A stretch of DNA of 63,773 bases, counting the filler, from Platydemus manokwari (Eukaryota): assembly GCA_037951405.1 (NCBI GenBank). It is 6 parts of 6 records of this genome, joined end to end, with 100 filler letters (N's around TTAATTAATTAA, not from the genome) between each part and the next. Parts side by side here need not be neighbours in the genome. Positions count along the whole stretch, not along the records: positions 1 to 9,472 come from JBBMOY011244429.1; 5 more parts are not named here. One strand, written 5' to 3'. Made by a program: the position numbers and the translations under genes. Positions 1,489 to 63,577 of the stretch are shown piece after piece. How positions within the stretch are numbered: the first letter of the stretch is position 1; each line of letters opens with the position of its first letter. Below the pieces are notes generated by a model. The model was not told the DNA's origin, searched no databases, and saw only the letters and a program-made list of their open reading frames with translations.

Positions 1489-2150
1489 TTAAATCAATAT
1501 TATTGTTGACCTCGGGCAACACTCATGTTCAATAACTATATTATACGGCATGAGATGCAGTGAATTGGACAAAAATAAATTTGAATTTAGGAACTCAATG
1601 AGCTTCTGATCTGGCTTAATGAATTCCAACATTACGACAAGCGGTAGGTTTTCTGCTATAATTCTGGTCTGTTCAAAGGTGGTTCTAGTTCGGAAAATTT
1701 TTCTTAATGCTATGTGGATTGTTGTAAATGCATCTATTATGTTGTTCCATAACATTTTGAAAGGAGTGTGGATGGCGTGTATTATTGCCTTGTCGTAGAC
1801 AATGTCTTCTTTTGGAATTATTTCCTTGATCATAAACTTCGATTTTGATGCCGTATAGGCGATTATTAGTGTTCTTTCATCTTGAGAGGCACTCTTTAAA
1901 TTGTTCGGCAACTCATTAGCGGCGTTAAAAATTCTTAAGGTGAATTCTTCTGGTTTTCTACGGATTACCGACTGTATGTTGTAAAACCTTGGATAATACT
2001 GAATGTAGGTATGCTCGATTTCCATATTCATGCTACGGGGATTTAAAGAATTAAAATTCATGCCCCTATAACAACGATGCTTATTTGTCCTTTTGATATT
2101 TAAGCAATTGGCATAAGAAATGACTTTTTGGAATAATTTTGGGTTTATAT
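1489..2150 (-). pseudogene. Accessory ORF of Gypsy element, distal domain, copy A (internally deleted and truncated in the exonuclease part)
   Basis: ORF 1489-2061 stays open upstream to about 2160 (KVKYINPKLFQK...RGMNF). ASKSKFMIKEIIPKEDIVYDKAIIHAIHTPF...IVIEHECCPR is paralogous to the minus-strand translation of about 8510-9020. Confidence 0.7.
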
Positions 2151-2153
2151 ATT

Positions 2154-4400
2154 TTAACTTTCCTTGATTTTCATTGGCCGAGACTTTTTAACAATGTTTT
2201 TATTGCTTGGCGAATTTTTTGCCAAAAGATTTTGATTTAATATTTTCAATTTTTTATTGGGTGAAGGGTTACAGGGTTTTACGTACATAAATTTATTTTT
2301 ATTTACAAATTTATTGTCTACTAATTTATTTACAATTTCATTACCATATTCCGAATATTTAAAAGAATATTTAATATTTACAAATTTTCCTAAGTTATTT
2401 TTATTTACATCAATTGTTTTCCTATTTAATCTATTTACAATTTTATTGCTACAATATACATTTATATCAAATTTATTCCTACAATATACACCCATACTAT
2501 TTTCATTTCTACAATATATATTCATACTGCAATATACACCTATACTATTTTTAACCACAAACAATTCCCTATTCTGTAATTATCAAGTCTCAATAACCTA
2601 CTTTCTTAAGAATTTTACTATACACCTTATAACTCATGGATCATCAACACCATAGTGGTCACGCTTGTAATTATTACTCCTAAAATTATTTTTCCTATTG
2701 TTATTTCATTTTCCATTTCTACTGATGTTTTCTTTATTTGCATTCTAGTTGTGAATTTCTCCTTAACTTCTGTTATTCTTTTTCTTTGCGTTACAATTAT
2801 CGGTTTTATTGTATATTTTATAAAAATTTTAGGCTGTATGACTATTTATTCTCGGTGTATTGTTATTTTCGGATTATTTTTCATGTAATACCAGATATTT
2901 ATTTGAACTGTCTGATCTTCTTTTATTTCTTGAGTCATTATTTCCTCTGCTGAATTTATCGTATGCTCTTATTTTTTAACATGCATTCTAACATTCACGT
3001 AGTTTAGTGCTTCCCATTTTATTTGTATTCAGATTTTTCTCAATGAACACTTTTCTCGGCATTTCTGGTGTTTGAACTATCATTGTTTTCATATTTTTAC
3101 CTTTCCTTATCATTAGTTGATCTATTACACCACAATTCAACTTATGGCTCCCCTTATGCTTTCATGGACTCTATCATCGGATTTTTTCCAAACTTGTTCT
3201 CCTCTAACATTCATTTCATTCAATATTTGTACATTAAATTGTTCTTTATCATTATTATCTATTAATGTTATTTGACCATATCTTGAGTATGCTTTGATCT
3301 TATCTTTTCTAAAATCCTCGTAAGAAAACATCATCATCGGACTTTGACATGGTTGAAAATTCGTTAATATTAACAAGGCTGACATCATTCTCGCTATTCT
3401 AGGTACTCGTCTTATACTTATAGCTGGTGGATCGACTTTTCTCTTCTTAGTATACATCATACAACTGCTATTATTATTGCTGTAACCATGATGGTGAAAC
3501 TTATTGTGCATGTTTTTCTTAGATTTTTAATGTCCTCTGTTTCCCTTATAATTTCAGTTAACTTTATCCTTTCTTTTATCAAAATACTCTTCCCTTCTTG
3601 TTGTTTAATTTCTAATTTATGTTTACATTGATCTGTTTATCCCTTAACTATCCTTTTCCATTCCTCATCCCCTAACTCTTTATGTTCATTAATTATTTCC
3701 TTATTTAACCAATCTAGCATCAGGAATTTATCCCCTTTTGTTGCACAAGATTTAAAAACTTTCTCACAATTGCATTTAGGTTTTAACACGTTCTTATAAC
3801 ATTGTTTTGCTGATATTTTATACATTCCTACTTTGGGAAGTAACATTGCTTGTTCTGGTACATTATTATTCAATGCTATATTTACTTCATTATCTACTGT
3901 TATTTTGATTGATGTTCCTATTAATGGTTGTAGATGATATCTTATTTTCCTAGTATGCGGTTCCCATGATATTCCTATCCTGTCTTTTCCTTTTGGAGCT
4001 TTAAATTTGCATTCATTTGCTACTGGTTTTACTTTATTCATCATTAATTATAAACCCCCTATCACTGATACTGTCAACTTTCTTTGACTCATGAATTCTA
4101 TCATGGCCATGATATTTACTCTCCATTGTTGTTCTAACTTTTCCTCCGATTTCCTATTATCGTTATTGATCTTAACCGCTCTTTCTTGCATATTTCTCCG
4201 TATCCTTGATGACACTTCATTATTATTTCTACAGATTTCTCTTTTTCATTAATTTATATATCATATATATGTTTTTAAGTTTCTCCATTTGCATTTATTC
4301 TGACATTCTATTTTTGCTCTATTATTTTCTGTCGTAACAAAATAGGGTAGTGTGAACTACTTAAATTCTGATTTTTCAATTCTACAAACGGATTCCTTAT
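2154..4400 (-). pseudogene. Decayed accessory/env-like coding region downstream of Gypsy integrase
   Basis: Chain of same-strand ORF fragments (3637-4044, 3137-3511, 2154-2564). Includes a signal-peptide-like stretch (RMMSALLILTNFQPCQS) and a TM-like stretch at about 2640-2710 (ITIGKIILGVIITSVTTMVLMI). It lies 3' of pol, where env or extra ORFs sit. Confidence 0.45.
2440..2560. repeat. Degenerate ~30-bp tandem repeat (core acaatataca), encoding YC(R/S)N repeats on the minus strand
   Basis: Four successive acaatatac/gcaatatac units about 30 bp apart. Translation GVYCSMNIYCRNENSMGVYCRNKFDINVYCSN. Confidence 0.6.
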
Positions 4401-4699
4401 CTTTCTTTTTTATAACTGATGAAGTGTTTACAACATTATTTGATATTATATTAAATTAACTTACGCCTTATTTAATTCTGTCTTATTACTTTCTTTTTCA
4501 GTCTTATTTGTGCATTAATTGGACTTATCATTAAGTTTATCATTAAACAAATTAACACTATTCGATATATCCTTCTTATTGATTTCATTTTTCATTCCTT
4601 CTCTATTTTTTCTATGGTGTTAATATTTAGAATATATTTTTGTGTTTTTTCTGGCTTCTTCCTTAGGGATCTTTTATATTAATTGTTGCTTGTTGCTCT

Positions 4700-6160
4700 T
4701 CTGCTTTTTTACACCTATTTACGTGAACGACAGGTGGGTCTTCATTTTTCTTTTAAATAAACATATTGGTATCGGTCACTTTGAATACCTCATAAGGTCC
4801 CTTATTTGGCCTTTGTAATTTAGATAAAATTCATTTCTTTACTTCTTGGACATAGATACTAACTTTATCTCCTACCTTAAATCCATGATTGTATGCTTTT
4901 TATCATAATAATCCTTATATTGCTTCTGTTTGAATTTTAAATTTAATTGAGCATGTTGGTATGCCTCTCCTAGTTTTTCTTTCATTACAGTTACATATTC
5001 CTTTTCATTTATTTATTGAAATGTTTGTGGCAAAAATTCTAAGTCTATTGGCAAATACGTATCTCTAAAATACATGAGATAGAATTGTGAATAGCCGGTT
5101 AATAACAGCTGTATTAAATGCGAGTGAGTATGGTTTTATATATTCATCCCAATCAGTTTGCTTTTTATTTAAAAAAATTCGATAGCATATTTTGTAATGT
5201 TTGATTGTAACCCTCTACTAATCCATCAATTTTTGATCTATATGTGGATTTATTGATTTTCTTTATTTTAAACAGTTCTGTCACTTCCTTTATGGTGTTA
5301 CTTAAGAAATCCTTTCCTCTATCGGTTAATAATTTACTGGGCACTCCATATTGAAATATTATGTTTTCCATTAGTAACTTAGCTATGGTTTCGCAAATGA
5401 CATTCTTGTAAAATAGTCACAGAATGCTATTGTGTATTTATTTCCTTTTTCCGTTATTGGTAAAGATCCTATTATAATCATTACACACATTTCCATTGGT
5501 CTTCCTAATGGTGCTAAAGATTTTAGAGGTACTTTTTTTATTCTACCGGTATTTTTCCTAGTTGCACATAATGAACATTGGTTACACTATTTTTCAACGT
5601 CTTTTTCCATATTATCCCAATAATGTTTGATTTTCAGCTCTCCGTTTGTTTTTCTTTTTGATAGATGACCTCCCAAGGCCCCATCATGGTAAGATAACAA
5701 CAAAAGTTCCCTTAATCTCTTGGGTACTACTACTAGATTTTCATCACCATATATTAGAATGTTTTCCTTATTTAACTTATATCCCTTTGTCTTTTAGCTA
5801 TCTTCTCTTTCTATGAACCATCTTATTTTTCTTATTTCACTATCTTCCTTTTTCTCATTTACTATCCCCGCATGTCTGTTTTGGTATTAACAGTTTGTAT
5901 GAATGAATTTACACCATTTATTCCTAATGTCTTTACTTCTGCTTTTTCAGGAATTCTGGACATTGTGTCTGCATTCGCATTTGATTTTCCTGTCCTATAT
6001 ATTATTTTAATGTTATGGTCTTGTAATTTTAATGCCCATTTAATTAATCGGCTGCTTGTATCCTTATGCTTCATCAAACTTTCTAATGGTTTATGATCAG
6101 TTTTTAATATTATTTAGGTTCCATAGATGTAGTGACAAAATTCTTTTAATGCAAATTTTA
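4700..6160 (-). mobile_element. Ty3/Gypsy LTR retrotransposon pol remnant: RNase H C-terminal part, H2C2 zinc finger, integrase core, GPY/F tail
   Basis: RNase H: TDHKPL...SSRLIKWALKLQDHNIKIIYRTGKSNANADTMSR. H2C2: LVVPKRLRELLLLSYHDGALGGH...CSLC. Integrase: YGVPSKLLTDRGKDF...DGLVEGYNQTLQNML. Tail: KGPYEV...VVHVNRCK. Contains stops and frameshifts. RH-before-IN order is Gypsy-type. Confidence 0.92.
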
Positions 6161-7479
6161 ACATTTATGTGTTTTAATGTTTATTCGCCTCGACGATCTC
6201 GACTTATATGAAGATAAGCTGATCCGCGTAAAAATCGATATGATTATTTTATTCTTGTCCCTTGCCTATCTTATCGTCTCTTCACTTTTATTATCAGTCT
6301 CTTTAATCAATTTATTTAACAAAATTATTCCCAAAATCGGTGGTGAATGACAATGTGCTTTATGTATTATTAACTTGTGATGTCCTATGCCAACTAGAAA
6401 TTCAAAAATCAACTCGATGTTTATGTTATAAATGTTTATTATTAATTACAATTATACATCGAAATATGAATTACTACGTTATACAATTAGAGCTATAAAT
6501 TACTACTTATATGACAATTATATGCAATTAGCAATGATTATAAAGTATTACAATATACAATGATATTAAACAACTACTTCTATGCACTTAAACGATGTAA
6601 TTAAATTCAATGTGCAATTCAATGGAAGCAGATTAAGGACCAACAGTTACCCTTTTTGATGTTGGGTCAGTGTCCGTTTCTTCAGAGTTTTTTCCGAGCT
6701 CTGCTCAATAAATATGAAGAATATACGATATATATATGGTAATATGTATTTTACAAAAATGTTTCTTACGTGATTTAAACCTTCGGTATTTGGTATAATT
6801 AAATAATCTTCCTATATTTCTATAGGGCATAAACTGGATCGCATGGCTTCGGCGGCAAATTATCTTCTTTACGAATTCACCCAACACACTATTCTAGAGG
6901 TTTCCAATTAAGAGTAATGCATATGATGTTTGACTACTTATATACGATTCAAGGGACAATAGGAAATTATTCGGATAGAATAAAATATGGGGGATTGATT
7001 CCCAGTTCAATTGTGACGACTTTTCACAATACACAAGGATTATTTCTCCGATGCGGTTGCCTTGAGGGAAAATATAGGGGTTATATAATTAATATTTTTG
7101 GTTGCTACACAGAAATAAGAAATTATTAACTTATTTCTATTCTAATTAATTTATTTTATCCAAAATGAACATAAAATTTTATCAAAGTTATCTTGAAATA
7201 TTATCATAAATTAAAACCATTTATAATTTTAACTATAATAAAAGTAATTTAATATTAAATCCAAACTTCTAAACTAATTGTTGTTATTATTATTTATTAT
7301 TATTAACCAAGAATATTAAACTATTTTTAATTAAGGGTTATTTAGATTTCTGCTTTAAATTATGTTTTTTAAAGAAAAAGAATTGCAATTGCACATTGAA
7401 GATAATATTTTGTACACAATAAAAATGATAAAAATTTGACTACTACTATACATCGAATCAATTAATGCAAAAATTGTTA

Positions 7480-9020
7480 ATAAAAAATGTCATTTTCCCG
7501 GAACCTCAACACTACAGGGGGTTCAGAGAAGCGTGTCCTCACGCGCACTTTTGCATCGCTTGAGAACTGTTGTATCCGATTTAGGCTTCCGGGAGAAATT
7601 ATTTTCAAAATTGGGGGATCCATGTCACCTTCGCAATGTCGGCTTGGAATTCAAATTAGAATTTCTTACTACTTCGTTGATTTGGTCCGTCATCAAACGC
7701 TCTTTCCATGTTCCGTCTATGGACATCTTCAGTTCGTCCATAGTCATTCGAAATCAGATAGTATTTCGTCGATCTCGTCCATTTCCAAGACATTTGAAGA
7801 TGTTGTGAGCTCATTAATCTATAACATTTGATTCATTTGTCTGATCGATGACAAGTTTTCATTTCTTTGATTTTGCTCCTCTTCAGCAGTCATTTGATTA
7901 TTTGCGTATTTAACTATCTTCTCTCTGAACGATCCGAAGTTTTCGTTCATTGATGTTAGATATTTTCTTTGGGACTTTCTTCTCTTTTTTTCATTAAATT
8001 TTCCTTTATTGGTCGCAATGTTCAAATCTCCTTGCCCTCTCTGATGACAGTCTTCTCATTCAGACTGATTTCTTCAACCCAATCGAAGATTTGGGTGGCA
8101 TTTATAATCAATTCATCTTCTTTCCTGAACTGTCTATTCTTGTTGCTTTTCCATCGATTTTCATATGTGTGGTACAGTTCCATTATAGAAATGACATCAT
8201 CTTTTTGATTAACTTGTCTGGTAATTTTGTTAAACAAATAAAAATTTACCTCTTCTATTGATAGATTGGACTTATCAATATTCTCCGGCAACAATTCATT
8301 CAACAGATCCGAACTTTTGAGATATTTGATACCCATAACCTCTGACAAATGGATATCAAGAGCCTTTAACTTGTTTTTTAGGCCATAACCCACGATGATT
8401 TTTCCTCGTGTATACGATATGACTTTTCTATTGGATTCTTCAGCGTCAAATCCGTAGCAAAGATTGCCACCACTTAAACCAGTTTTTTCCGCATTGTAGA
8501 ATTTAATTTCTGCTCTTGGGTAACACTCATGTTCGATAACTATGCTACCCCAGTAATTTCTTAGGCTGATCCAAACAGGGTGATATTTCCCCTTATAATC
8601 GACCGCAGTCTTAACTTCAATGAAAATGATATGGTGTTTTAATTTTTCATCTGTCACTTCTATGAGTTTTCTGATGAACATCACTTCTATTTTTATTTCG
8701 TTGTACGCATGAGATGTAGCGTATTGGGTAAGAATACATCTAGGTTTCTAGATTCGACAAGCTTCTGATCGGGCTTGATCAGTTCTGTCATTATGACAAG
8801 CGGGAGATTTTCCACTATTATTCTGGTTTGTTCGAAGGTAGTTCTTGTTCTGAAAACTTTTCTTAGTGCGATGTAAATTGTTGAGAACGGCTCTATTATT
8901 TAGTTTTCATTGCTCCACAAAATTCTAAAAGGGGTGTGGACTGCGTGTATTATTGCCTTATCGTAAACAATGTCATCTTTGGGAATCATTTCCTTCAGTA
9001 TGAACTTCGATTTTGATGCC
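7480..9020 (-). pseudogene. Accessory ORF copy B containing an ISG20/REX4-like DEDDh exonuclease domain (8022-8684), decayed
   Basis: IIFIEVKT...VWISLRNYWGSIVIEHECYPRAEIKFYNAEKTGL...RGKIIVGYGLKNKLKALDI...DDVISIMELY follows the REX4/ISG20 pattern (VAxDCEMVG..ARVSIVN..G....YVxP...TDYRT..SGI...KGKILVGHAL.NDLKAL...EDA.ATMELY). The upstream part has one in-frame stop and one frameshift; downstream fragments continue to about 7480. Confidence 0.7.
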
Positions 9021-9472
9021 GAATGCTTTCAAATATTTATTAAATCCCAGATCAAATAATTCACAAAAAAATACAAACCAATTCAAACTAAAATAGAAAT
9101 AAATTAATTAATATAAAAAATTACAAATAATAATTCAGAGAATAATATTTAACTTAATATTTTTTTCTGTTAGCAAAATTAAGTCTTGAATTAACATTCA
9201 TCTATTTAGCATTTGAATGTTATTATGCTGCTCTTTACACTTCCAACACTTGATAAAATCATATCTAGTTTACTCGTCGATGAAAGCAACAATAACATAA
9301 TAAATACGTTTTACAAAATAGTTTTCATAAAAATTGTATATTTTAATATAATTGATAATTTTACAGTAATGCAAATTAATAAAATCATATCTCCAAAACA
9401 TACTATCATGCAATTTAAAATGTTATTGTAGTAAGAACGTGCAGAAATAATTTATTTCAAAATATACTAAGA

Positions 9473-9572: not shown

Positions 9573-10283
9573 AAATGATTTGGTAAAACAAAAACTTTAA
9601 ACAACTAAAAAACATGAATAACTTTTGACTCAGCCTAATATTTGTTTAATAAGTTAGTGGGATATTTTATAAAATATTTTCTGTTTTAAATACAAAACAC
9701 ATATATTGGCATATATTTTATTTGGATTTGATTGGAATGATACAATTCATACGATTGATATCAAATAGTTTTTGCCTTAATATTTCATGAATCTCCATCC
9801 ATTAGTCACAGTTATTTCATGGCCAAACATTTGACAAAAGAAATTTGCTTTTATCACCAGTAAATCTGTATCAATAAACAAATCTGATTTGTTGTAGTAT
9901 TGTCTGACTTAATTCATAAGCGTCACGTCAACATTAATTGAGAACAGGGATTCATTTTTATTATATTTTTAATAATAATAAAATATTAGTCTTGACATAA
10001 TCGATATTTCCAAAATATGTGTTTATAAAATTAGATCTTGAATAAACGGTTTTGCGTTTGATCAGGTATCGAAATTTAAAAGATTTAAAAAAACAATTGA
10101 GTTATTTTTAAAATTTTTGGTGGATTTCTGATAAGATGATTGGATATTTGAAATAAATATTGCATTATAGCAAATAGTTTATGTCATAATAATAACTGCG
10201 CTCATCAGATCATTTCTATATTGAAGATTCAACCAACATGATTTTGTATTATTAAATATTTGTTATCTGATTGTATAAAACAG

Positions 10284-10948
10284 GTCATAGTGGTGCAGTG
10301 CGATGTGTTAGGGCTGATGCCCATCGTATTGTATCGGGCAGTTATGATCACAGCATTCGAATGTGGGATGTGAAATCTGGTGTATGTATATGTGTGTTAG
10401 ATGGACATACAAATCGCGTTTATACATTATATCTTGGAAAACAAGTTCTTCTTTCAGCCAGCTTGGATACAACTTTACGTGTGTGGAGTAACGATTTGAA
10501 GAGTTGTATTCATGTTTTAGAAGGTCACCGCTCTCTGACATGCGATATTGCTATGAATTCGGATGAATCACTTATTGTGAGCGGAAATGCTGATAACTCT
10601 ATCAGAGTATGGTTGCTCAGTACGGGTGAATGTATCTTGAAACTGGAAGTTGAAAGTGAACAATTATCAGCCTTGACAAGTGTCCATGTTGTACTGGATA
10701 GATTTATTGTTAGTTCTGGTACGGATGGCACTGTGAAACTATGGGATTTGAATAATGGCACTTATATTCGAGACATTGTTCGATTGGAACATGCATCAAG
10801 AGGTATCGTTTGGCGATCTCTGTCAGTTGATCATCACTTAGTATGTGCTGTCGGGAGTCGCAATGGCTTTGAGACAACGAAGCTGATTTTATTTGATTTT
10901 TCAGTTAAAACGCAAACATGGTCATTTACGAAATCCCCAATTTCATGA
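10284..10948 (+). CDS. FBXW7: F-box/WD40 protein 7 (FBXW7/Cdc4/Archipelago/SEL-10), terminal exon
   Basis: WD40 repeats GHSGAVRCV, GHTNRVYTL, GHRSLT, SGNADNSIRVW, DGTVKLWDL and the FBXW7-specific tail GIVWR...LVCAVGSRNGFETTKLILFDF. Acceptor CAG at 10281-10283. Upstream exons not recognised in this contig. Confidence 0.93.
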
Positions 10949-26552: not shown

Positions 26553-29091
26553 TTAACCGCTTTTCCTTACAAGCTCCATTAATTTCTCTGTTGATAACGA
26601 CTTAGGTCTTTCAATGGGCAATCCAAGAGCTCGATCCCAAACCAAGGATGATAAAACACCTAGAGCTCGAGATACACCAAATAAAACCGTGTAAAAATTC
26701 ATTTCTGTCATTCCATAATACTAAAAATATTAGAAATCATATATCTTAAAAATCATCAATATAAAAAAACAAAACAATCAAATCCCTTAGTTCAACTTTA
26801 TTAGATAATAAATAAAATTGATTTATTCCATTCCTTTATTACTCATATAAATCATTTCTTACTACAATTCACTTTGGGAGACTTTAATTTTTCATATTGA
26901 ATTTTGATAACCAATATAGATATGCATCATTTTTTGTTAAAAATAAAAATATTAAAATTAATATTTGATTTGCTTATTCTATTAATAGATTTTGACTATA
27001 TTTTGTTAAACTTAATAATATTTGGTTTGAGATTATCAAGAGATTCACATTGTTGAAGATATAATGATCGATTGGGTAGAAAGAAGAGGAGTATAACAAT
27101 CAAATTCTTTCGTGTATCCGATGTTTTCAAATATGAATTTTATGAACTGAAAAGATTATTTAAAGGAAAATAAAAATCAAATTATTTTGTTTTAAATTTG
27201 TTTCAAACTTCAAGTAAAGACAGGATTTGATTCTTCAATAAAAATATATATAAATCTCGTTTGCAAAATTGACATGTTTATGTTTTATTAATTAAAGATA
27301 TCGTGCAATGGCCAGATCAAAAAAATGTTTACTTTCAATAATATGAAATGAAATAAATTGTGCTAAACATATGGAGCAAGTTGATTTTAAAAATTTTCAA
27401 AAAAAATTATAACCAATTTAAATAGGAATTACAAGAATTTGAAAATTATATGCTAGAAATAAATGAATTAATTTTAATAGATTAATTAATATTTTTCTAT
27501 AACTTTGTTTATCGTTACCGAATATTAACATATGACATGATATACAAAAATAACTTCATTTCTAATTTCGAACAGCCATATCTTATTGAAATGAAACAAA
27601 ATCATTCTAAAAGCAAAAATTCCAAATAATAACATCATTCGATATATTTGTTTTATTGTCAAAATCTATTAATGAAACATCGTAGAACAAATATCAAATA
27701 GCTTTTTGCAAAACCTATTTTATCTTAGGAGTGTGGGTGAGGAATAAACTTATAATGGGTTTATTGGAAAAAGTCCGCATGCTAAAAATGTAAAAGTATA
27801 CCCAAATATAAACACTTAATATCCTAATTAAAAATATAATAGTACAAAATAATCTCATTTCTTTCTGTTAAATAATATTGGTGATCCAATTAATAATTGT
27901 TAATTATATTTCATTCACAAAACAATAATTGTAATTCAAAATTAAAATCAAGACTAAATATTGCAGTTGACAAAACACTTCATACAAAACACGTATCACT
28001 ACATAAAATCAATAATTATAATTATTTTATCATACATTGTTTCATTTTAAAGTTTACCAATGAACCATATTTTATTATTGATATGAGAAAGACTCTTTTA
28101 TGTGACCATATTGTTGATGAACAATCATATTTGTTATAATTTTCATTATTTGATCTCAAATCAAGCTTGGCCAACTCAAACCATTTGATAACCCCTCTAT
28201 TTTAAAAATTTATTGTCACCATGTCTACTAATAAAATGTTTATTATTTATTTACAATAGAGATATCGATATGATTTTAGAATTCTGTAAATGTTAGCCAT
28301 CATATTGAGATATTAAAAAATTTTATCGAAACATTGTATCGACCATCATTTTGACGGAGATTATCAATTTTAGTTTGAAATTTTACTCAATCTCATTGAA
28401 ATTAAATCAACTATCATTTCAATTAATCATAAATTATCTAAAATTATTGAAAATTTCGTTAAATATAAACCAATTTCGATCGGAACTAGTTGGCTAAATC
28501 GGCTCTAAATATTGAAGTAATAAATGGTTTCGTTAAAATTTCATTTTATTTTTTTAAAGTTTTATCGATGATAAAATAATAATAATAATTTTGAAAAATC
28601 TAAACATACTTGAAGTAATACTCCACTATGGGCGTCGACGTTCGGAAAAGGATTAGCGATTTTACTTTTTTTACCCAGAATGACCGGAACGATTTGATAT
28701 AATTGACTAACAACCTTGAATAATGGATCATCGGGCAAATGTTTTAATGCGAATTCTCGTTGACACATATACCTAGGATCAGTTTTACGCAAGACAGCGT
28801 GCCCATAACCTGGCACAACCTTAAGTATAAAGATAGATTCATTTTGAAAATAATGCTAGTTCTGACTTGTCCTGCTTTGAGTGTATCTTCTATAAATTGA
28901 ATTATCTCATCGTCACTTGGTTTTGTCGTTTTAAGATGTTCAAGCATTTTTTGAACCCACCTTAATACTTCTTGATTGGCAAGACCATGAAGTGGTCCTG
29001 CAAGGCCACACATAGATGCTGCGTAAGATAAATATGGATCTGATAAAGCACTGCCTACTAAATGACAAGTATGGGCGCTCACATTACCACC
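26553..29091 (-). CDS. CS: Mitochondrial citrate synthase, last three exons (28867-29091, 28610-28819, 26553-26720)
   Basis: [73 protein letters not shown]...IERPKS. Phase-0 GT-AG introns of 47 and 1889 bp. 5' exons lie beyond the contig end. Confidence 0.97.
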
Positions 29092-29567
29092 CTGAAAATA
29101 TTGGAAAATTATCATTAACTTAATAAAAAGGCCATGGATAGCATTTTAAAAAGAAAATTAAAAAAATAACCTTAAATATTAACCAAGCTCCAAAACAATA
29201 ATTTTTATTATTATAAATAATTGTTATAATCATCGATAATAATAACAAATATTCTATTTGATCGTATGGTTGCGTATTTACAATATTTTTAAACTATATT
29301 TCTAATGGTACTGGGTAATGTCAGTCGATGTAAGATCAACGAGACTAAGACATCAATACCTTAAGCTATATATGTATTCTAGAACGTCTAGGATATATCA
29401 TTAAATTAAACATTTGTTATACATTTTATTCCATATAACCCTTTAAAAAATCAAACACAAAATGGAACTTTATTAAGGAATGTCAACTGTATGATAGTGT
29501 TTACGCCATTAGAATTACAAGACATATACAATAAATTGTATAAATCAAGTTTATCTTGAAATATGTC

Positions 29568-31153: not shown

Positions 31154-34100
31154 TTAGATATTTTGTTCTAACATCAACTTATATGATCTGAACTTTTCAA
31201 CCAAGGAATCGGATTTGGATCGGCTTTGTAATTGAATCAAGCATGATGCAATAATATCAAGAAATTGACTAGAATAAATTTGACTAGAAAAAAGAATATA
31301 ATAATCAAAATTGAAAATAATTCGAATATTACTTTTCCCTAGGATTCATTTGCATGTGCAAAAAGATATCAAAGCAGATACATAATGAATTATATATACG
31401 ATTCAAATGTCTCTTCAAATCTTGATCCTTAATGTAGATGGTAATGTTTTTTAATCAAGAAATACAACGTTTCTCATACTTTCATTTTTAAAACCTCAAA
31501 GTATCCTTGGATAATTCTAACAATCGGTATATCAATAGCCAAGAAACATGAAACGGTCCAATCGGCAGGAAATTTACATGAATCACAATATGATTCAAGA
31601 TGGCTTATAATAATATCTAATAATAATTATTATTTTATTAATTCAAATAAATATTCAATTATAAATAATAGAATACTCACCCATCGGTAGGAATGTGCCA
31701 CAATCTTTGAATTTACTGACAACTTGCATAATGGTTTGTTTGAGACTAACATCACGTGTTTCAAGACAATCGATTAGATTCAATTTATCGATTTCTTTCT
31801 GAATCAATTCTTCCCAAATTAATCGAATACTAGTGATATCCTACAATGGAAATGTATATATTTATACATAAATGATCAGTGAATTATCGATTGAAACCAA
31901 CATTTTGTCCACTGACGCGTAAAATAGATAATTTAGATACAGTGAGATCATATTGATCAGCATAATCAGTTAATAATCGATAAATACTGAATAATCGGCT
32001 ATTCAGATCAATATACACCTGACCATCATGATCACCGATTTCTTCAATAATCACTCGTTGTAAATGAAGTATTTCCACTTTATCTTCCAATTCTTTCAAA
32101 TAATCAATTTCAACATTTTGATTACCTGAATCACATGATATTATATTCAAACAAATCAAAACCACACCACATCACCTCCAATGACAGCTCGAACAAACAC
32201 TATAGCTCTACTAATGCATTCCAATCGTTCATCGAGATTGAAATTCGTACATTCGGTAACAGCTAAATTATCCAATACCTTTGCTGCTTCCAATAATCGA
32301 TTCTGTAATTCATAATGTTTCCATAACAATGTTTTAGCAGCAACATTTTGTGGATCAGCTTGTAATCGATGTTGTAAATATGATTCCAAATGAATGGTGT
32401 TGAATTTGAGTATTTCATTGGTCAATCCATTATCGATCATCCATGAATATACCTGTGGTGGTGACAAATCAATGATTTCTAATCGATTTTCAAATCATTT
32501 CAATACCTCAAAATGTGCCATTATATCATCTTTTCTATCGAAAATCGTATTGAGAATGATATTCAAATCGTTCAGAGCATTGTTACGGCCGGTATTGTTT
32601 GGAAATAGAAAACTCGTATCTTGTATGTCTTGACTCTTTGACAATACAGATAAAGATGATGATTTCGTCACTGGATTCGAAGTATATTTGCTAGCTTCCA
32701 GCAGACTTGATAATGATTCGAGAAGATATTTATAAGCATCATTTCTATGGAATCACACAAATCCAAATCAATCATTATTCACACACAACAACGCTACCTT
32801 GCTTCTATGGAACTAATTTCAATCGGATTCTGTGGTCTGTGGCCTTCTTTCAAATAATTGAATGCAAAATCATTGGGATCTCTAATCTTGGCAGCATGTA
32901 AACACAAATGAACAGCACCCCATGTGCAACCAACTGCCCGAAGTCGGCATATAATGCTTCCTAAATCAATATTTGGTCCAACTTGTTCATAAAGTTCAAT
33001 TGCTCGAATGAGAAGAGATTCCTTTTCCTGTTCGATTGTATCTTGATTCAATGATTTGGAATTATTGGTCAAAGTATCAATCTATAAAATAATAATGATA
33101 ATAATAATAATGATAATATATTTACATTGACTAATATTTCATTAGCTCTTGAACATAAAGCATCTTCCATTCGATAAATATTGGGACATGTTTTCAATAA
33201 AGCTTCAATAATAGCATCAGTTGATGCTCCATCAGATAGATAATGTTGTAATAAACCAGATATTAATGATACCAATAATGTCCGTTTATTGGGCAATAAT
33301 AATTGTTTCATGGTACATCTCAACAGTTCATTTTGTATTTCTGGTGATAATAATCTAAATTATCATTATCATAATATATAAATAAGGAGACAGAGTGAGC
33401 ATAAAATATACTACTTGATAATTTGATGGAATTCATGTTCGCTGAGAATTCTCCACAAACCCACAATCTCAATGGTTGTTTTCAATAATTCTAATAATTC
33501 CAATGCCAATGAAATCGGTGCCTGTTGTGACATGGCGGGTATTTTCATGATATCAATGGATTTCAATCGAGGATAATTGTCACGGATGAAATCACTGAGG
33601 TGAATCAAATGATGGAGAAACCATGATAATTCTTCACAATCATGAGTGCTGACAATCTGTGATGGATATCATCATTGAATAACAATAAATGATAATGATA
33701 TTTACATATGTATCTTGACCATTTGGTTTATAATATTCACCAATACAATTATCCCATAATGGTCGAAGAATTCTTGCAGCATACATACAGAGCGCTTGAT
33801 GTAAAGGGTTAACATGTTCATAAATCTTTCCACCTTGTTGTACACTAGCAGCTCGATTTTTAATGCTTTCATTTAAATAATACAGCACCACCTTAATAAT
33901 AATGAAAAATGATTATAAAAGATAATAATAATGAATATGATCTTCCTAAAACATACTTCAGTAGCTCTGGACGATAAGAAAGAGTTTTTCTTATCACTGG
34001 CAATCACTAAAGCAGCATAAACCGTTTCCTCTGGTCCATAATGATTGATCCATGATCTAATCTGTGGACATTGTGGTGAAGTATTTTTCTCCAAAATTTC

Positions 34101-35919
34101 TCTCAAATGATGAATTGGGCTTGGCAATTCTAGTTGTACAATACTGTCCACTGAAACCATAAGGAATCTACGAACTGGATCCAAATGTTGTGTTTGGATA
34201 ACAGGCACAGCCGAGTGTTTGTTGTCAATTTTATCCAATGGTGCCAAGAACCAGGCACTTCCATGAGTCCATGACATTGTCAATGTTTCGGCAAGTTCAT
34301 TTAATAAAAATGCATCAGGACTAATCGTATAAAGTGCTTGATTTTCAATTGATGTTCCACAAACCATCAACAATGATCCACGGCTTTCGCAACACAATCT
34401 GATATTATTCATCTTGCCAAACATGCCAGATTGAGTGACAGGTGGCATACGAATATGACTTAATTGAAGATTTTCCATGAAATATAATCGGACACCGCTT
34501 TGAGTCACGGCCATTAGTTTCAAGGGTCCATAACCGGATCCGAGTGGGCACAATTCAACTATGCTAGAATATATTTAATAATAGATTATAATAGAAAATC
34601 GGAACTATTACTTTCTAAACTGATGCTTTTCAACTGATTTGACATTTTTCGAAGCTTTCGAAACAAAACTATCTTCAGTGATATAGCCTAAACGTTGCAA
34701 ACCATCATTCGGAAGTAGTTCATATTGAGCGATTAATGAATTATCTGATCTTGTATAAAACATGTTTCTACTGGCATCAACTGCAATTTGTACAATGGGT
34801 TCTAAATGGAATTCAATTATAAAATACTCCATCATTTTATGAAATACCATTCAACATTAAGCTATTTACAATTACATTCGGCAACAATAACGATAGTTTC
34901 CACAATGAATGATTGATAAGTTTAGCACAGACTTTGTGATCAATTTCACTGGCAAACTTCTGGCAACTGTAAACTGATGATTGGCCAAACTTGAACCATG
35001 ATGGTTTTTCTGACCAATACGATATTTCGAGCACATTTCCAGATTTTGTTCCTAATATTATCCTTCCGTTTACACTTTGAATTGTAGTAACATGCTCATT
35101 ATCTGTGGCAATTCTAAAAAACGGCTCCGAAACTAATTCAAATGTGTTCATTTTATTTCCACAAATCGAGACTCCGAGTATTAAAATCTCCAGTTGACCA
35201 GCTATACAAAGCAAATAATGTATGCTAGAATGGAATGCACCATGTTTTGGTTTTATTAACTCAACAGCCAGAATTGTTTCATTACATCCATCATAATATG
35301 CCAAATCCGAACTAATTAAAAGATTTTAAAAATAAATTGATAGACTTTTGATTTATGTACCATTAAATATTCATATTATTTATTTTACTTAAATTTTTAT
35401 AAATGACATTGAATATATTCATAAAAGACAATTATAATGCATATGTTTTTAATATATTTAGAATAATTTGAAACTAAATTGCCAAAACATTATGATTACC
35501 CGTTCTCAAAATTCCAAATAAACAAATCTGAATCAACAGTGAGCCAAATTCTATCAACATCTCGAAAAACACCCATCATACAATTCTGTTTCATATCTAA
35601 CAAAAAATTTAATTTATTAAATAAGTTAGTGATTGCATGCCTTTTGTACGCTCTTGTAGTTCTATTGGGATTGCTGAAGTTTTTAAAACTCTCACACTGC
35701 CACCTATTGACTCAGAAACGCTATGGTAATCACTGCCTTTAAGACCACTTACAGTGACATGATCTAGAAAGATGAAAATATATATTTTATTGACAAAAAT
35801 GTACTTTGCTGAATGTGCAATTGATCTATAAGGCTAAAAAAGTTTTTTTCCTTAAAAAGTTGGCTTTCGAGAGAATGTAGAATTTTGTCATAGGAATAAA
35901 AATGACTATAATCATCCAT
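31154..35919 (-). CDS. NUP155: Nuclear pore complex protein Nup155 (Nup157/170 family), complete, many short introns
   Basis: ATG at 35919. Motifs [111 protein letters not shown]...RANEIL, LLWKHYE...AAKVL...[12 protein letters not shown]. Last exon ends at TAA 31154-31156. Confidence 0.95.
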
Positions 35920-38430: not shown

Positions 38431-38991
38431 TGTTGGGTAGATCACAAATCAATCAAAGGGTTTTAAAAACCAACGAAAGAACCCTAAAAAAGGTTAATAC
38501 ACATAAACCCGATAAGCACATGTGCCGTCAGACAATCAGATTCGTTTTAATATTAGTCCCTATTTAGAAGGTAAAAATCGCCAGGCACATACCTACAGAT
38601 ATCAGCACGCTCTAATATCCGTCTATGGCACGAGAGATGCGAAGAAAAATTCAAGTAGATGGATTATTGAACAGATTTAGTAAACTGAAAACGAAGGTCC
38701 GTGACATGTATCAGGCCCACTCGACAAGTCTATAAAAAGAATTTGAGTTCCATGAATATCTGCCGGTCTCTGGTTGGTAACTCGCGTATTAAGTTTATCT
38801 TTGTGTGATTTTTAGTAAGAAGTCTTTTTGATTAATTTCTATTCTGTTTTTGACTTTCGGGCATTGATTTCGTCTTTCGTGATTTACAATTGTGAGTTTT
38901 GAAAAGATTTATTTGTAGTTAGTGAGATTTCAGTTGTGATATTTTGAGTAGAACAGTTTTCAGATATAAATTGTGGGTGAATATCCCAACA
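38431..38991 (+). mobile_element. Solo LTR (561 bp), family X copy 1
   Basis: TGTTGGG...CCCAACA perfect 7-bp inverted termini, flanks CTCA/TTCA (near 4-bp TSD), TATAAAA at about 38730. Colinear with the reverse complement of 49146-49709. Confidence 0.88.
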
Positions 38992-40526: not shown

Positions 40527-43500
40527 TCACATAGTGGCAGGGCAAAATATCACTATATCGACTAGAAAAATAGAGATTGTTCGATTATTGATTACCTGTA
40601 GGTCAACTAGATATTTTGATCCTGTGAATTGACAGTATTTCTCAACAAAAACATCATTTTCAGTGTACTTGTTAATGTAGTTTGCCGTTAATTCCATGAT
40701 GTTCATATGTCGATTGAGAATAAAAGAGTTTGATACGTTACACTTTGTAAACACGTGAGTCTGGGATTCCACTTCGTAAAGACACTTCCGGCATTGATGT
40801 TTTTGCATGAATTTTTTATTTAAAGTAGCCAATGTATCGTAGCGTGCTTGATGAAGGAAGCAGAATTCCGAGATTGACAGTCTACCGTTATATATCACTT
40901 TCTTCCAGGTAGAAGTTATCTCCGGTAGAATTTTGGTGTACTAGTTTTGACCATCTGAGTTGGTAGCTTCTGTTGAAGAATATCCGTAGTAACTTGGTCA
41001 GTTTGTTCAGGCGCTTCTTTCCTAGTAGAGCTTCTGTAGATAAGTCCACAATGTCTATTGTAATATTTTGATAGATTCTTATTCCAATATCTCCATCTAT
41101 GATTTGGATGTCTTGGTTGTCAGCATTTCCATCTGAGCATATCTGATTGCTTTTCGAATTTTGTCTAGTATGAGTCACATAGTATGTCCTAGCAAAAAAT
41201 ACAATTTTACTATTAATGAACATACTGTATGCATGTAATTTTTGCCAGGGTAGCAGTACACTGTCAGCCAGTTTTTCGGATAGACACTTGACTTCAATTT
41301 CCAGATTGTAAATTGAATTGTGGAGTTTTAGTGAGAAATTTACTCCCAAGTATCTATAGTAATATTCTACTTGCAACTGAGCAGTCTGTTGATTGTTGAT
41401 TGTCGGGCCCATGGTTGTTTCTTTTGATTTAATATTCCAAACATGTTCGCATTTGATGGGCTTAAATCGAATTCCCAGTTGGTCCACCATTGGTAGCGAT
41501 GAGTTCATCAAGTTTTGGCATTCTTCCACGCTTTTGGCGATGATAGCAATGTCATCAGCGTAAGCTAGAGTTGTAATTCGGTGACTTGCCAGCATTATAC
41601 CAGCATTTTGCACTTGCTCTATTTGAACAAAAACCGAATTTATTGCGACATTGAACAAAAGCATGGAGATAGGGCACCCTTGCCGTACTCCTCTTCTGAT
41701 GATAATGAATTTGGTTGTGTATTCTTTACACTGGAACGCGGTTTGGAAGTTGTTGTATAGGCTCCGAATGATTTGTATTGATGTCATGTTTTTGTACGTA
41801 ATTCTGTTTCTGCCAGGGGCGCTAGGCTTTTTGTCCTTTAATATAGCTTAGGTTTCTTCAATGTTGAAGTTCTTGATTTTGAAAGTTGGTGCTCGTTTGA
41901 TTAGGCTGTTCAGAATGGTTTCGAGCATATTTTAGAACATTTTTCCATTGAATGTACTTTGTTTTGCTTCCTGGTGTAGTGACTTTCCAATTTTTGTTTC
42001 GGAGGACAACAGTCTGCATCATTTGAACTAGTGACAATCTTAAACGCAGAGGCTGGCGCTATTTTGTACAGTTTCTGTAAACATAGATCAGTTTTCCCTA
42101 GGTCGGTTGATTGATTGCTTTTACCCTTATAAGGGTTTCTTTCATCTTTGATTGAGCTTAATTCTCTGAAATGAATGATGAATAGTTTGTATTTGTCATG
42201 GAGTGATGTCTTCTCCAATTTGCTGCATAGTTCATTGGCCAAGATTTCTCTTGTCTCGATGGTGGTTCGAGGATTGTTATTGGTTATCGGCAGAATTATG
42301 TTTTTCAGATTATTTTTTCGCAAATATTTCTGTGTTCATCAGTAATAATATCATTCATCGGGTCCAACAGTGAGATCGTTACTTTTTTAGCTTTTACTTT
42401 CACCAGGATCCATTGTTTTGATTTCAAGAGAGCTGGACAGAATACTAGTTCTCGATTTTTGAAAAATCTGAAATCAAGGCTATCAATAATATCTTTGACC
42501 TTGTTTCTCGTTATTGCTTCACTGATGAACAGGTAATGTAATAGGTTGCGTTTCTGTTTAAATTCACTTCTTGGTATTAGGCACATATGTTTCTCAGAGA
42601 AAAGAACATAATCTTCCTTGTTCACTATTGTCTCAGCGCCTCCACCGATTTTTGATAAGTTCTTAATTAGACAGGAAGTACTTGATGTATTATCTCGATG
42701 TCTATTGCTGCATTCTTATCTTCAGTCATAATCTTTTCAGCATAGCCACAGATCATGGGTCCGCAGTCATCACTGTTTGATTGGCAAATTCTAGTTTTGA
42801 AACTGGTAGGTAATTTTATGACCATGATCATCCCGTTTGTAGACTGATTAATGGTATCAACCAGAACTTTTACTCTCTCCATGGCCAATTGTAAGAAATG
42901 ACTCTGGTCTCCGATAGGATCGATTATTTCTGCGATGTCGTTGATCTGTCCACAGAAGAGAGTCCAGTGCGTATTTGATACATTGACTGGTGCAATTATT
43001 TTACTTGCCAATTGTGGAATGTTGTACAAAATTGAGATCGCCTGGTCTCTTACTGTATTGCAAAATCGCTTGTGTGTTGTATGAATCGATGCATATGATC
43101 TTCGGATTTTCAGGAATAGATTTAATATATGCATCAATTTGGTCTCTGGAACCAAAGCAGGTTATCAGGCACTGAGGGGTCAAAATTAAAGAACCGGAAT
43201 CTCCCTTAGTATAACCCCATCAATTAATTTTGCATTATTCTGTTGAGATATCAGGTCTTGGAACCTATCTTGGCTTAGATGCAATTAAGTCTTGGCTCGG
43301 GCTGGCGAAGGATGGGATCGTCAGCTGTCTCTTTTTTGTAGTTTCTCTCGGTTTAGGTTGTTCGATCGTTGTTTGAGTATTGGCATTCACTTGGATTTTG
43401 ACAATTTCTTTAAATGGAGAGATAATTTTTGGTTGATCAGTTTCTTTATCGAGGTCAATCTCCATAGTATTATCAACATTCTTCCCGTCGTAAGTAGTTG

Positions 43501-49145: not shown

Positions 49146-49709
49146 CATTGGGATATTAATCAACAATTTAAATCTAAAACCTGTATTACTTAAAATATCA
49201 CAATCGAAATATCTATGACTATTAGTGAATTTTTTACAACTCTCAATGGTAAATCACACAATAGGGGATCAGCACCCGAAGGACAAAAACAGAATAAAAA
49301 GTAATCAAAAAGATCGATTACTAAAAACACAAGCATGACACATGAGTTACCGACCAAAAAGACTGACAGATATTCATGGAACTCAATCTTCTCTTTAGAC
49401 CTATAGGTTTGTGTCTTCTTGATGTCACTGGTCTTCGTTTTCCATTTACTGAATCTGTTTGTAGATCAATCTACTTGAAATATTCCTCGAATCTCTCGTG
49501 CCATTGGCGGATATTTGAGCTTTCTACCATCTGTAGGTATGTGCTTTCAATTCTTAATATGAATTAAGCTTCTGAGTATGGATTAATATTAGAACAAATC
49601 TGATTGGCTGACAACACACGTGCTTATCGGGTTTGTGTGTGTCGACCCTTTTTAGGGTTCTTTTCTTGGTTCTTGTGACCATTTTGATTGATTTGTGATC
49701 TACCCAACA
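49146..49709 (-). mobile_element. Solo LTR (564 bp), family X copy 2
   Basis: The reverse complement begins TGTTGGGTAGATCACAAATCAATCAAA exactly as at 38431, aligns throughout and ends ATATCCCAA. Flanked by an AATA direct repeat. Confidence 0.9.
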
Positions 49710-56606: not shown

Positions 56607-59600
56607 TTTGATTATAAATTTAATTAAATATTTTAATCGATTTGTTTTTAATTTTGATTAAGAATGATTCAGTTTCCATTTTTTAAACTAAAAGACATCG
56701 TAGTGCTTGTGAATGATTATTCATATTTTACTTCGCTAACAGTTTTGGTTAGTTCTTCTATTTTTATTTCTTAGAATTATGACAATTTTTGACGGTTGTT
56801 AATGAGAGGGAAAATTCACATTTCATATTTTTTGGCTACTGACTTTTTTCTAACAAATTTAAAGTGATTATAAGATCGCAATTCATTAACAATCGATACA
56901 AAGATTAAGATATTAATATTTGACATTTGAAAAAAATGTGTTGGCCTATGGATATAATTGGTGTGTTTGTGTTGGTTAAACTCTGATATACAATTGTTAA
57001 TTAACTCAACAGGTGATTTCAAAATCAAAATTATCAGCAAAATTAACCACATCAATGACATCATAACACTTGTATGTGTTCAATTTAGAACAGTTTACAT
57101 AATAGGTTTCTTTTACAATTACATAATTAATTAAAACAAGGAATGTGAACAAACAATCGACCTCTTCAATACTTTCCAAAAACTTATCATATATTTTAAA
57201 ATATAAAAGTAAATAAATTTTTGAACTTTCACATTGGCTTTTAAGCTTAAATTTTATCAAATTGTTTCAACCCGGATTAATTCGAAATAAACTATATCAG
57301 CACATTTTGGTTTTATTTAAAATAAACTTTGTCACTCAAAATCGTTCACAAATTTACTTGTGTTTTTTGACTGGATTGATTAACTATTCATATTATTTTT
57401 CTTAGTGGTCAGTTCCTTCCTCACAAGATTATATTTTAGATTTATATTTTCATTAGACATGATTTAAGTGTTAACTTATCGGCCATTACGCAAATAAATG
57501 TACAAATCAGATTTTTTTTTCATAATTCTCAAACAACTAAACCTTCATTTCATTATAGACTAAACGAATTAGCTCATATAGAATCAAGAGCTTGCTTTAA
57601 ATGTGGTAGGAGAGGTCAAGTCGCACAAAACTCCAAATCAAGAGGCCATATCAAAATTTTGTATTATTAGATTTTCTTAAGTATTTAAATCACTTGTCGA
57701 ATAATGACGATGATTTCATGAAAAGTAAAAATTTTAGTAAAAATTTAAAAAGAAAAAAAGGCAAATTGAGCCATAGGTCATTGATAATGATGTATGTAAT
57801 ACCAAGAGCGATAATAATAATCAATGAAAACTTTGAAGATTCTTTACAGACAAAGGAACTAAGAATTGAATCTGAAATAAAATTATCGCTAAAACAAAAT
57901 TGTAGTAAAAGAGACAGTCAACGCAGCCAGTATATGTAATGGCAAGCGATACAAAGTTCTAGGTAAACAAACAAAGCTGAGGTAATGGTGGCCTATTAGG
58001 CCAAGATACGTGAATGGTAAGGTGTTTTCGATAAAATAATCGGATAAATAAAAACTCATCTTTTTTGTAATTCATAAGCAAAAGTTGTCAAACATTATAA
58101 TCAATAGTAGTTTATAACATGAAGTTAAATGATTGCAGTTTAACATTTTTAAAAGCTAGTAAATTTATTAAGATTCGTGGAGACCTTATAAGTGAGTTTG
58201 TATGTTCTAGATCAATTAGGCAATGTAGTGTTGGATTTTCGAATAGGAAATTTAGTAGAAATGGATACTACTAATACCTAAATCAAATGAAGTGTTTCTA
58301 AATAACTCTCTTTGTATACTATGTAAACACATTTGAAAAAGACACTGATTATTTATTATTTTAACTCAGCCACAATTTTATGCTAAAATACAAAATAGCC
58401 GTATGTTACGAACTAACGAAAGTGAATCAATACAAAAACAAATCCAACAACAATAACATCGCAGCATCCCTCAATGTTTTCAATTGGGTCGACTCATTCC
58501 CAGCTTTCAGCCTATATAAAGATGATACCTCAGTCCTAGTGTCAATCTTGCTATTAAAGTCTGCAAAGGCCTAAATCCAAGTGGAAAGTCGATATGAAAG
58601 TGGCATTTTGTGATCCTATTTTTATTTTACTCTTTTGTGATCTTATTTTGATTCTTTGTATCATTAGACTCTTTGCATGAAATGATTATGATTTATTTAT
58701 GAATATTTTTGATAATTTTACTTTGTGGGCGAAATCAAAATTTAAAAATGTTGACGAAATAGAAAATGAAATTAATAATGTAGGCGAAAAATAAATTAGT
58801 TTAGATTGGTTCAGATTTTCAAATAAATATTATGATTGAGAATTCCAGTGATGTAACTGTATATATCAACGATATTATTATCTTTTCTGATGGTTTTAAT
58901 GAGCACATTAATGATATTGACAAATCTGAAAATACAAGCATCAAAATGTAAATGTGCTAAACGGACAGAACTTCATTATGATTATTTTCAAGTATTATTT
59001 AAGTTTATAATTAATTAAATAACTATATTTTTTTTAAAATTTCATGATAAAATTTATTTTTATAGAAATTATAATTAAGAGAAAAATTGCTTAAATTAAT
59101 TGGATTTCCATTGCCCTTCCTTATTCTGATTTTAAATGAGTTGATTTTCTGGATTAGTGAATAATAGTTAGCAGATCTTTTTTGTTAACCAAAATTTTGA
59201 ATGCATCTGCAATATATGCAGTTAAAGATTTTTCCTGCATTAACAATCTTTAATTAAATATCAAGTAATACATCCATGTTAATTTTATCTTAACCTTGTA
59301 AATATTGTCTTTCTTTTTAAGCTTGGAAATAAGAAACAATTTTATTGTCGATAAATTTTGCATTCTAAAAATTATTTAAAATTTTTAGTTTTATTTTGAT
59401 TTTTTTTTACCATTTTTTGAGAATTGATTAATTTATGGAGTTCATATGAAGGCAGTTTTTTGTGTATATCCTGTGTAAGTAAGTAATAGAAAAAATATTT
59501 GAGGTAGAGACAAATAGAGACAAAACAGAATAGTTAATAACCTCACATTATGTTAATTTGATTACATTATCGCAAGTGAGACGATTTATGAACACAACAT

Positions 59601-62900: not shown

Positions 62901-63577
62901 TTATTTATATAAATAATTTCTGATTAACTTATTATTTTAATTAGTTAATTAATTGTTTTTAATTATTTTTTAAATTATTTTATTTATATAAATAATTGTT
63001 AATTAAATAATTTTTTAATTAGTTAATTAATAACAATTAAAATATGTAAAAATAAAAATATATTTAAATAATATTTATAAATAAATAAAAAATAACAATT
63101 ACCATTGTAAAACAATAAATATCAAAAAAAATAATTAATTAAATATTTATCAATAAAATTAGTTGAAAATATAATAAAAAATCAGAAAATATTAAAAAAT
63201 AATAAATAATATATCAAATAATATCATTTGGATTTATCAAGACATTTATTCAAGTTCATTCTTACTATTAATTCTTTCACACCACCAACATGATCGTCAT
63301 GCCAATGGGTGAGAATTATATCTCTGATAAATGCTTTCGGTCCAGCATTCAAAAGCACATCTTGTAAATTTTTTATATAATTAGGATGATTTGCGTTGCT
63401 TGTGTCAATTAGAACACGGCCTTTATTTTGGTCACCATGTCCTAGTAGATAACTATTAGTTCCTTGTAATGTTGTATAACCGGGATTGGTTCCCAGAACT
63501 CGAATTATACCAGGACTTATTTGCTGTACAGGAGGTAATTTAGGAATAATTGTCAATAGTGAGACTGCTAACGAACC
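59998..63577 (-). CDS. LACTB2: Endoribonuclease LACTB2 (metallo-beta-lactamase fold), exons 63266-63577, 61005-61233, 59998-60428
   Basis: [33 protein letters not shown] (HxHxDH), [16 protein letters not shown]|NGTT, IFPGHG, YIKHR. GT-AG junctions have consistent phases (0, 1). Confidence 0.95.
62860..63030. repeat. AT-only degenerate direct repeat in a LACTB2 intron
   Basis: ttatttttaaattattttatttatataaataatt...ttaattagttaattaat occurs twice about 80 bp apart. Confidence 0.7.

Follow-up and report, generated by a model that had tools for sequence, protein, structure and literature searches.

The question raised by this locus is why an open frame resembling the 3′-5′ exoribonucleases of the ISG20 and REX4 type, with most of its catalytic residues replaced, lies close to the remains of a gypsy retrotransposon. 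It was originally predicted that an LTR element had captured a host nuclease and keeps it as a non-cutting RNA binder. Having analysed the whole 63,773-nucleotide stretch of Platydemus manokwari DNA (hereafter the window), whose eukaryotic DNA is AT-rich and holds host genes split by introns, we favor with moderate confidence the reading that the frame belongs to an accessory gene of two domains, carried by large env-pol gypsy elements and present here as a broken copy, likely from a minority branch that had lost the catalytic residues before this copy decayed. The parts of this copy (copy A) that concern the nuclease are as follows, the motifs being placed by alignment columns:

8022..8747, minus strand: open frame of copy A, forming the 3′ portion of the accessory gene, with the DEDDh domain at about 8657-8139
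8610..8618, minus strand: ExoI motif, E-V-K where the family has D-x-E
8370..8372, minus strand: ExoII position, Lys, where the 29 intact members have Glu (17) or Asp (12)
8196..8213, minus strand: ExoIII region, with Val at the His position and the Asp retained

The frame has 241 codons from stop to stop, starting at 8747; its stop codon occupies 8022-8024, and translation from a GTG at 8684 gives 220 amino acids, with an ATG at 8681. Queried alone, the ORF gave no match in Pfam and its model from the single sequence has a pLDDT of 37, but ISG20L2 (E 0.024) and ISG20 (E 0.077) are the top two of four phmmer matches in the PDB, and a profile of the homologues’ core finds it with an E-value of 8e-34 and an HH probability of 99.2. 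The predicted likeness to REX4, ISG20 and AEN is thereby borne out. At the catalytic columns, whose identities are taken from the accessible text of PMC10899777, it has E44, K46, K126 (codon AAG), V179 and D184, keeping one of the five residues of D-E-D-H-D, exactly the pattern of altered ExoI, Lys at ExoII, missing ExoIII His and retained ExoIII Asp that had been described. The description of the AAG codon as two changes from GAY was overstated, because ExoII is Glu in 17 of the 29 intact members and Glu is a single transition from Lys. Judged by its sequence, then, the ORF is a genuine ISG20/REX4-type DEDDh domain with altered catalytic residues. It keeps 14 of 20 conserved non-catalytic columns as against 1 of 5 catalytic ones (p 0.064; the same comparison gives p 0.012 for the homologue P0007), and by eye the ISG20L2 RNA contacts M186, R226 and W229 correspond to T, N and K.

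The extent given for the frame calls for a correction, because it takes in just the 3′ portion of a longer gene, the 5′ half of which is broken across 8707-9024. Most long homologues are 420-680 amino acids in length and consist of an N-terminal domain (N-domain) of about 170 residues, then the nuclease, then a variable tail, and the N-domain is present twice in the window:

8707..9024, minus strand: broken 5′ half of copy A (beta-helix N-domain), adjoining the DEDDh ORF upstream
1489..2187, minus strand: sibling copy B, N-domain frame open, downstream of the pol remnant as in intact relatives

In copy A this half is frameshifted near 8707, meets a stop codon in frame near 8900 and changes frame near 8995, and its homology stops near 9021-9024. 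It is 76% identical to the N-domain of copy B, whose open frame is the best of 1306 window frames against the N-domain profile (E 1.4e-9) and which, past an internal deletion, continues in the same frame into a match of about 14 residues to the DEDDh ORF before it ends. We also considered the direct repeat formed by 1548-1856 and 8707-9024 as a pair of LTRs and rejected it, because a dN/dS of 0.12 over 90 N-domain codons marks it as protein-coding; on this sequence comparison, the N-domain remnants are products of divergence under past purifying selection. A 20-nt GT-AG stretch at the junction of the N-domain and the DEDDh domain was likewise rejected as an intron by eye, the spacing in the homologues fitting better without it; the distance from N-domain to ExoI, counted by eye, is alike in P0007, P0046 and the window.

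For the N-domain of the metagenome locus L001, an AlphaFold model built from a 28-row alignment (pLDDT 89.6) is a double-stranded beta-helix. Its top matches are ALKBH6 (Z 12.6, rmsd 3.8, 137 residues aligned), Ofd2 (Z 12.5, rmsd 2.4, 129 aligned) and ALKBH7 (Z 11.4), whereas plain cupins score at Z of about 10.9, some 1.5 Z below the best matches, and Foldseek returns cupins. The AlkB signature consists of an HxD/E...H iron triad together with Arg ligands of 2OG. Among 25 N-domains aligned and inspected by eye, neither the triad nor the Arg ligands are conserved, and one His is nearly invariant. Since the triad is not conserved, we do not class the domain as AlkB; it is predicted to be an AlkB/cupin-like beta-helix lacking the iron site, and the modeled fold may equally be that of a plain cupin.

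The gene’s association with gypsy elements comes from one metagenome scan, in which 285 pattern matches yielded five loci, four of them with the same assembly prefix. Context was read from both of the long loci, L001 and L004 (L002 and L003 being too short). Each encodes in one frame a Monjiviricetes-type fusion glycoprotein, a protease, reverse transcriptase, RNase H and integrase, with the gB-type env (PF24664; E 9e-84 in L001 and 5e-94 in L004) upstream of protease and reverse transcriptase, and the accessory gene follows the polyprotein on the same strand after 960 nt in L001 and 334 nt in L004. No gag match to Pfam was found upstream of env in these two loci, both of which are open at the 5′ end. 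In L005, the end of a membrane-anchored ORF lies upstream of the accessory gene. The long polyproteins (L001:20-9040 and L004:1-9624) extend 400-500 amino acids past the integrase into a signal-like, beta-rich, transmembrane region with no Pfam match; by Pfam, L001 has two aspartic-protease-like stretches and L004 up to three, those of L004 being separated by an additional membrane-anchored module. On the flanks of the accessory gene are small ORFs, helical or basic/acidic in character (L001:9207-9875, L004:11583-12008 and L005:2715-2972); those of L001 and L004 have no Pfam match, and none of the three has a significant match in the window.

The window holds the corresponding remains of such elements:

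4690..6155, minus strand: decayed gypsy pol, RNase H to integrase, with 5 stops and 5 frame changes relative to L001
2627..4245, minus strand: broken frames after the integrase, with a hydrophobic end; by position likely the membrane-anchored tail of L001 and L004
6160..7110, no strand assigned: non-coding stretch, candidate LTR, matched by many contigs of run X1
7500..8010, minus strand: remnants of short basic-then-acidic frames behind the DEDDh ORF, matched by an X1 contig over 7503-7987

The pol remnant matches that of L001 and L004 at E 1.6e-71. Per segment it is 37-63% identical to L001, with RNase H at 63% and the integrase zinc finger and core at about 50% identity to L001 and L004. 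In the window’s elements between 1.5 and 9 kb, pol is represented by RNase H and integrase only and the gB-type env is absent. The frames at 2627-4245 have no significant match among the post-integrase tails of L001, L004 and L005. As for LTRs, the window holds no second copy of 6160-7110, where neither a PPT nor a TSD is recognized by eye, and neither the window nor the metagenome loci yielded an LTR pair (copies there are partial and contigs end). The remnants at 7500-8010 likely belong to the element, to judge from the X1 match. Relative to the pol remnant, copy B is placed downstream, like the accessory gene in L001 and L004; copy A lies upstream of it, and since the nearest pol is thus downstream of the ORF, its linkage to pol is inferred by way of its sibling, copy A presumably being what is left, at the 3′ side, of another element that has been truncated. 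Several homologues are found on contigs of 14-17.6 kb, which may approximate the length of the element. The predicted carriage by a gypsy LTR-type element therefore holds at the level of the family, because the gene stands behind an env-pol polyprotein in both long loci and their pol matches that of the window.

A HMMER scan of 1.84 billion representatives returned 36 homologues at E<=1e-3 (best 5e-15), 25 of which match Pfam RNase_T at E<=0.01; a word-based search for homologues gave nothing nearer or longer, and scans of viral contigs gave no match to the family. The family profile matches ISG20L2 (5e-28), ISG20 (8e-19), SDN1 (2e-16) and PAN2 (about 1e-5). In the 36-row catalytic count, which excludes the window, the host-like P0032, the four domains of P0021 and P0015 (replaced by P0046, a full-length member of its cluster), the set D-E-(D/E)-H-D is complete in 29 rows, cut short in one and altered in six, and Lys occupies ExoII in none of the 29. 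Because the full set is so common, the family norm is likely, on sequence grounds, an active 3′-5′ nuclease, and the idea that the element family as a whole keeps a non-cutting decoy is not supported; an intact motif among relatives was the outcome that the original prediction had itself set against a decoy. The excluded P0021 (778 aa) is a pseudo-nuclease outside the element family, with four tandem REX4-like domains whose catalytic columns are all altered.

The altered members nevertheless extend the catalytic loss beyond one copy, as predicted, and make it probably older than the window’s. Lys at ExoI, a Glu-to-Lys change, is shared by the window with P0007, P0046 and P0025, and Lys at ExoII with P0046 and P0025, P0026 having Arg. 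P0007 (535 aa) and P0046 (564 aa) are full-length open two-domain proteins that keep 12-17 of the 20 conserved non-catalytic columns, and according to the accessible text of PMC10899777 one catalytic substitution suffices to abolish ISG20L2 activity. At the remaining sites the altered members differ from one another (DKINL, DKKGN, EKKVD, AEFLD and YYTKD), and in P0023 and P0036 the site was lost separately, each time on a long branch. In a tree from all columns, with P0015 standing for P0046, the window groups with P0007, P0046, P0025 and P0026 (91/77); with the catalytic columns removed, these five group at 92/26 and the window branch is long (2.2). The ORF thus groups weakly by sequence with this dead branch, a profile of which returned only P0015.

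Run X1 is perhaps the window’s own source, and its contigs are accordingly read as other copies in the same genome rather than as an independent occurrence. In two of them (records 3 and 4) the N-domain and DEDDh parts are adjacent and 83-89% identical to the window; across 8620-8708, record 4 matches the window in length while record 3 lacks one letter, and in no X1 contig are the two halves in one frame. Three X1 contigs continue past 9021, with a median of 255 letters unlike the window. Among 40 of the 101 rows of ORF differences to X1 contigs, 10 of 21 are synonymous, against an expected fraction of 0.21 (p 0.005), and two listed differences fall at Asp columns invariant in the family (residues 122 and 142). 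The synonymous excess and the changes at these two columns together fit a history of selection followed by decay, as read from sequence. Over 680 nt the DEDDh half is unbroken, although the rate in its neighbours predicts 3.7-6.4 breaks (P 0.024-0.002), a test biased by the fact that the ORF was picked for being open. The claim that the window copy is maintained finds no support, because its 5′ half is cut short, contains a stop and does not share the frame of the DEDDh half; the copy is likely a pseudogene that makes no functional protein.

Could the ORF be a decayed duplicate of the host's own REX4, close to a retrotransposon only by chance? Its named best matches are the host proteins ISG20L2 and ISG20 and the window has no LTR pair, but the ORF nests with two-domain element proteins, apart from the host-like P0032 and P0021 (100/100), the family N-domain lies upstream and no intron is evident; this reading, to which we give next to no credence, is largely refuted by the element loci, the pol match and the N-domain. 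A less extreme departure from our account would have the gene split in this lineage, with the dead DEDDh half kept as an ORF of its own from the ATG at 8681 by the element or the host; of the rival readings this one comes nearest to the decoy that was originally proposed. The open codons beside broken neighbours, the equal length of record 4 across the junction, the lack of any X1 contig with a fused frame and the excess of synonymous changes all fit such a split, which we still consider improbable: in copy B a single frame joins the N-domain to DEDDh residues, the long homologues are all fused, the window has changes at otherwise invariant columns, and what lies upstream is a truncated coding remnant, with no promoter shown.

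It is harder to separate our reading from one in which catalytic loss reflects relaxed selection or decay, repeated independently several times, the dead forms having no function. We regard this as rather unlikely, though well ahead of a split gene. The dead-branch clade is weakly supported once the catalytic columns are removed, Glu-to-Lys is a single G-to-A transition that can converge, the altered members are unlike each other at the other catalytic sites (with the separate losses in P0023 and P0036), and the window differs from other X1 contigs at the two invariant Asp columns; yet P0007 and P0046 remain long open two-domain frames with their conserved columns, Lys at ExoI is found in all four dead-branch rows that cover the site and in none of the 29 intact rows, and, more weakly, there is no shared difference at 8370-8372 among 40 of the 101 rows, both long contigs spanning the codon. 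A separate doubt concerns the active members, which, instead of evading defence, might serve element replication as trimmers of primers, cDNA overhangs or the 3′ ends of RNA. To our knowledge most gypsy elements do without such an exonuclease gene, and a step that replication needed should not have disappeared several times from genes that are open in other respects (6 of 36 altered), so that a replication role is possible but not what we would expect, even though the relatives REX4 and ISG20L2 process structured RNA (accessible text of PMC10899777) and a replication role has already been proposed for the rotifer DEDDy ORFs described below (accessible text of PMC5408684).

Returning to the broken accessory gene of an env-pol element, the usual family member would be a 3′-5′ exoribonuclease made from a separate ORF, with the beta-helix N-domain acting as a module that binds nucleic acid or a partner. 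By analogy with SDN1, a small-RNA-trimming exonuclease matched by the family profile, and with the arenavirus NP exonuclease, the intact enzyme would likely trim host small RNAs or the element’s own exposed RNA, and such trimming would blunt RNA-based host defence. In the dead branch, the scaffold may have been kept as a non-cutting binder or competitor, by analogy with Maelstrom. In its boldest form, which we offer tentatively and think rather unlikely, the proposal is that env-bearing gag-env-pol gypsy elements of invertebrates encode an undescribed anti-silencing protein of two fused domains, an AlkB-fold reader and an ISG20-type exonuclease, which in one branch has become a dead decoy with lysines at metal-ligand sites. 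The accessible part of PMC7968707 describes the arenavirus NP exonuclease as a viral DEDDh enzyme for immune suppression and Maelstrom as a DEDDh-derived RNA binder without the catalytic motif; both are of a different lineage from the family here, and the analogy is functional only. Little is known of proteins with which animal retrotransposons suppress RNA defence, and an intact enzyme with dead homologues of the same architecture would form a natural pair for testing a captured nuclease against host RNA surveillance, the window copy itself being a fossil pointer to the family.

Capture of an exonuclease by LTR elements has a precedent, whereas the DEDDh two-domain form is apparently undescribed. 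In the accessible texts of PMC5408684 and PMC6431247, the rotifer Juno and Vesta LTR elements and Terminons carry ORF3 DEDDy exonucleases with intact residues. As here, ORF3 is a separate 3′-5′ DEDD exonuclease ORF behind pol in gypsy-like elements, and its DEED variant motif may be set beside the DEEHD of 17 of the 29 intact members; unlike the family here, which is of the His type, resembles ISG20 and REX4, is fused to a beta-helix and has dead members, it is RNase D-like and intact. A Tyr-type, RNase D-like ExoIII was not encountered in our family, which has RNase_T and ISG20 matches. Host REX4, ISG20, ISG20L2 and SDN1 are the closest solved nuclease relatives and share the same five catalytic columns; the family differs from them in being element-borne and in its extra N-domain, and the window copy in keeping one of five catalytic residues. 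On the side of the element, the accessible text of PMC13524379 describes GAG-ENV-POL “ancient errantiviruses” of HSV/gB type in Nematoda, Bryozoa and Platyhelminthes, which L001 and L004 resemble in having a gB/chuvirus-like env in frame upstream of PR-RT-RH-IN; by eye, their env is similar to the C1a rows given for Platyhelminthes in supplement 3. Term searches of the main text and 7 supplements of that paper found no report of such an accessory exonuclease gene, which would add an unannotated gene to the gB-type errantiviruses. In supplement 1, eight of nine flatworm rows have no listed LTR, and extra ORFs behind pol could explain this.

Burro, a giant gypsy element of planarians, likewise has env in frame with pol, between gag and pol, and has captured many accessory domains (BIR, BCL2-like, MATH, ankyrin and dUTPase); in the accessible part of the review, its list includes no DEDD or AlkB domain, unlike the elements here (PMC6431247). 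Orchid Ty3/gypsy elements carry an AlkB domain that is a functional demethylase according to the title of PMC9289625; it is another AlkB-like fold on gypsy, although here the HxD...H triad is not conserved. An ISG20/REX4-type or beta-helix-DEDDh gene in such elements was not found in the searchable literature, including the accessible text of PMC11796362; subscription papers, Sacco et al. 2022 (PMID 35550022) and Repbase, Dfam and GyDB lie beyond that reach and may annotate the gene. The accessory-gene family of env-bearing gypsy elements is thus real and apparently undescribed.

Elsewhere in the window, pieces at 57766-58241 and 58811-58918 (both plus strand) are decayed and resemble the L001 gB-type env (tblastn E 0.003 and 0.011), and a piece of reverse transcriptase follows them; from these matches, the genome likely holds one more env-pol element, older than the others. 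A non-LTR remnant at 40527-43161 (minus strand), in which RVT_1, zf-RVT and a protease of Ulp1 type (Peptidase_C48) are recognized, resembles NeSL-type elements. Host genes recognized by Pfam encode a WD40 propeller (10271-10948, plus strand), citrate synthase (28744-29145, minus strand) and a Nup133/155-like protein (33873-35325, minus strand), and exons at 59998-63577 (minus strand) look by eye like those of a metallo-beta-lactamase-fold protein. A 560-nt dispersed repeat, inverted and 75% identical, occurs at 38431-38989 and 49148-49709.
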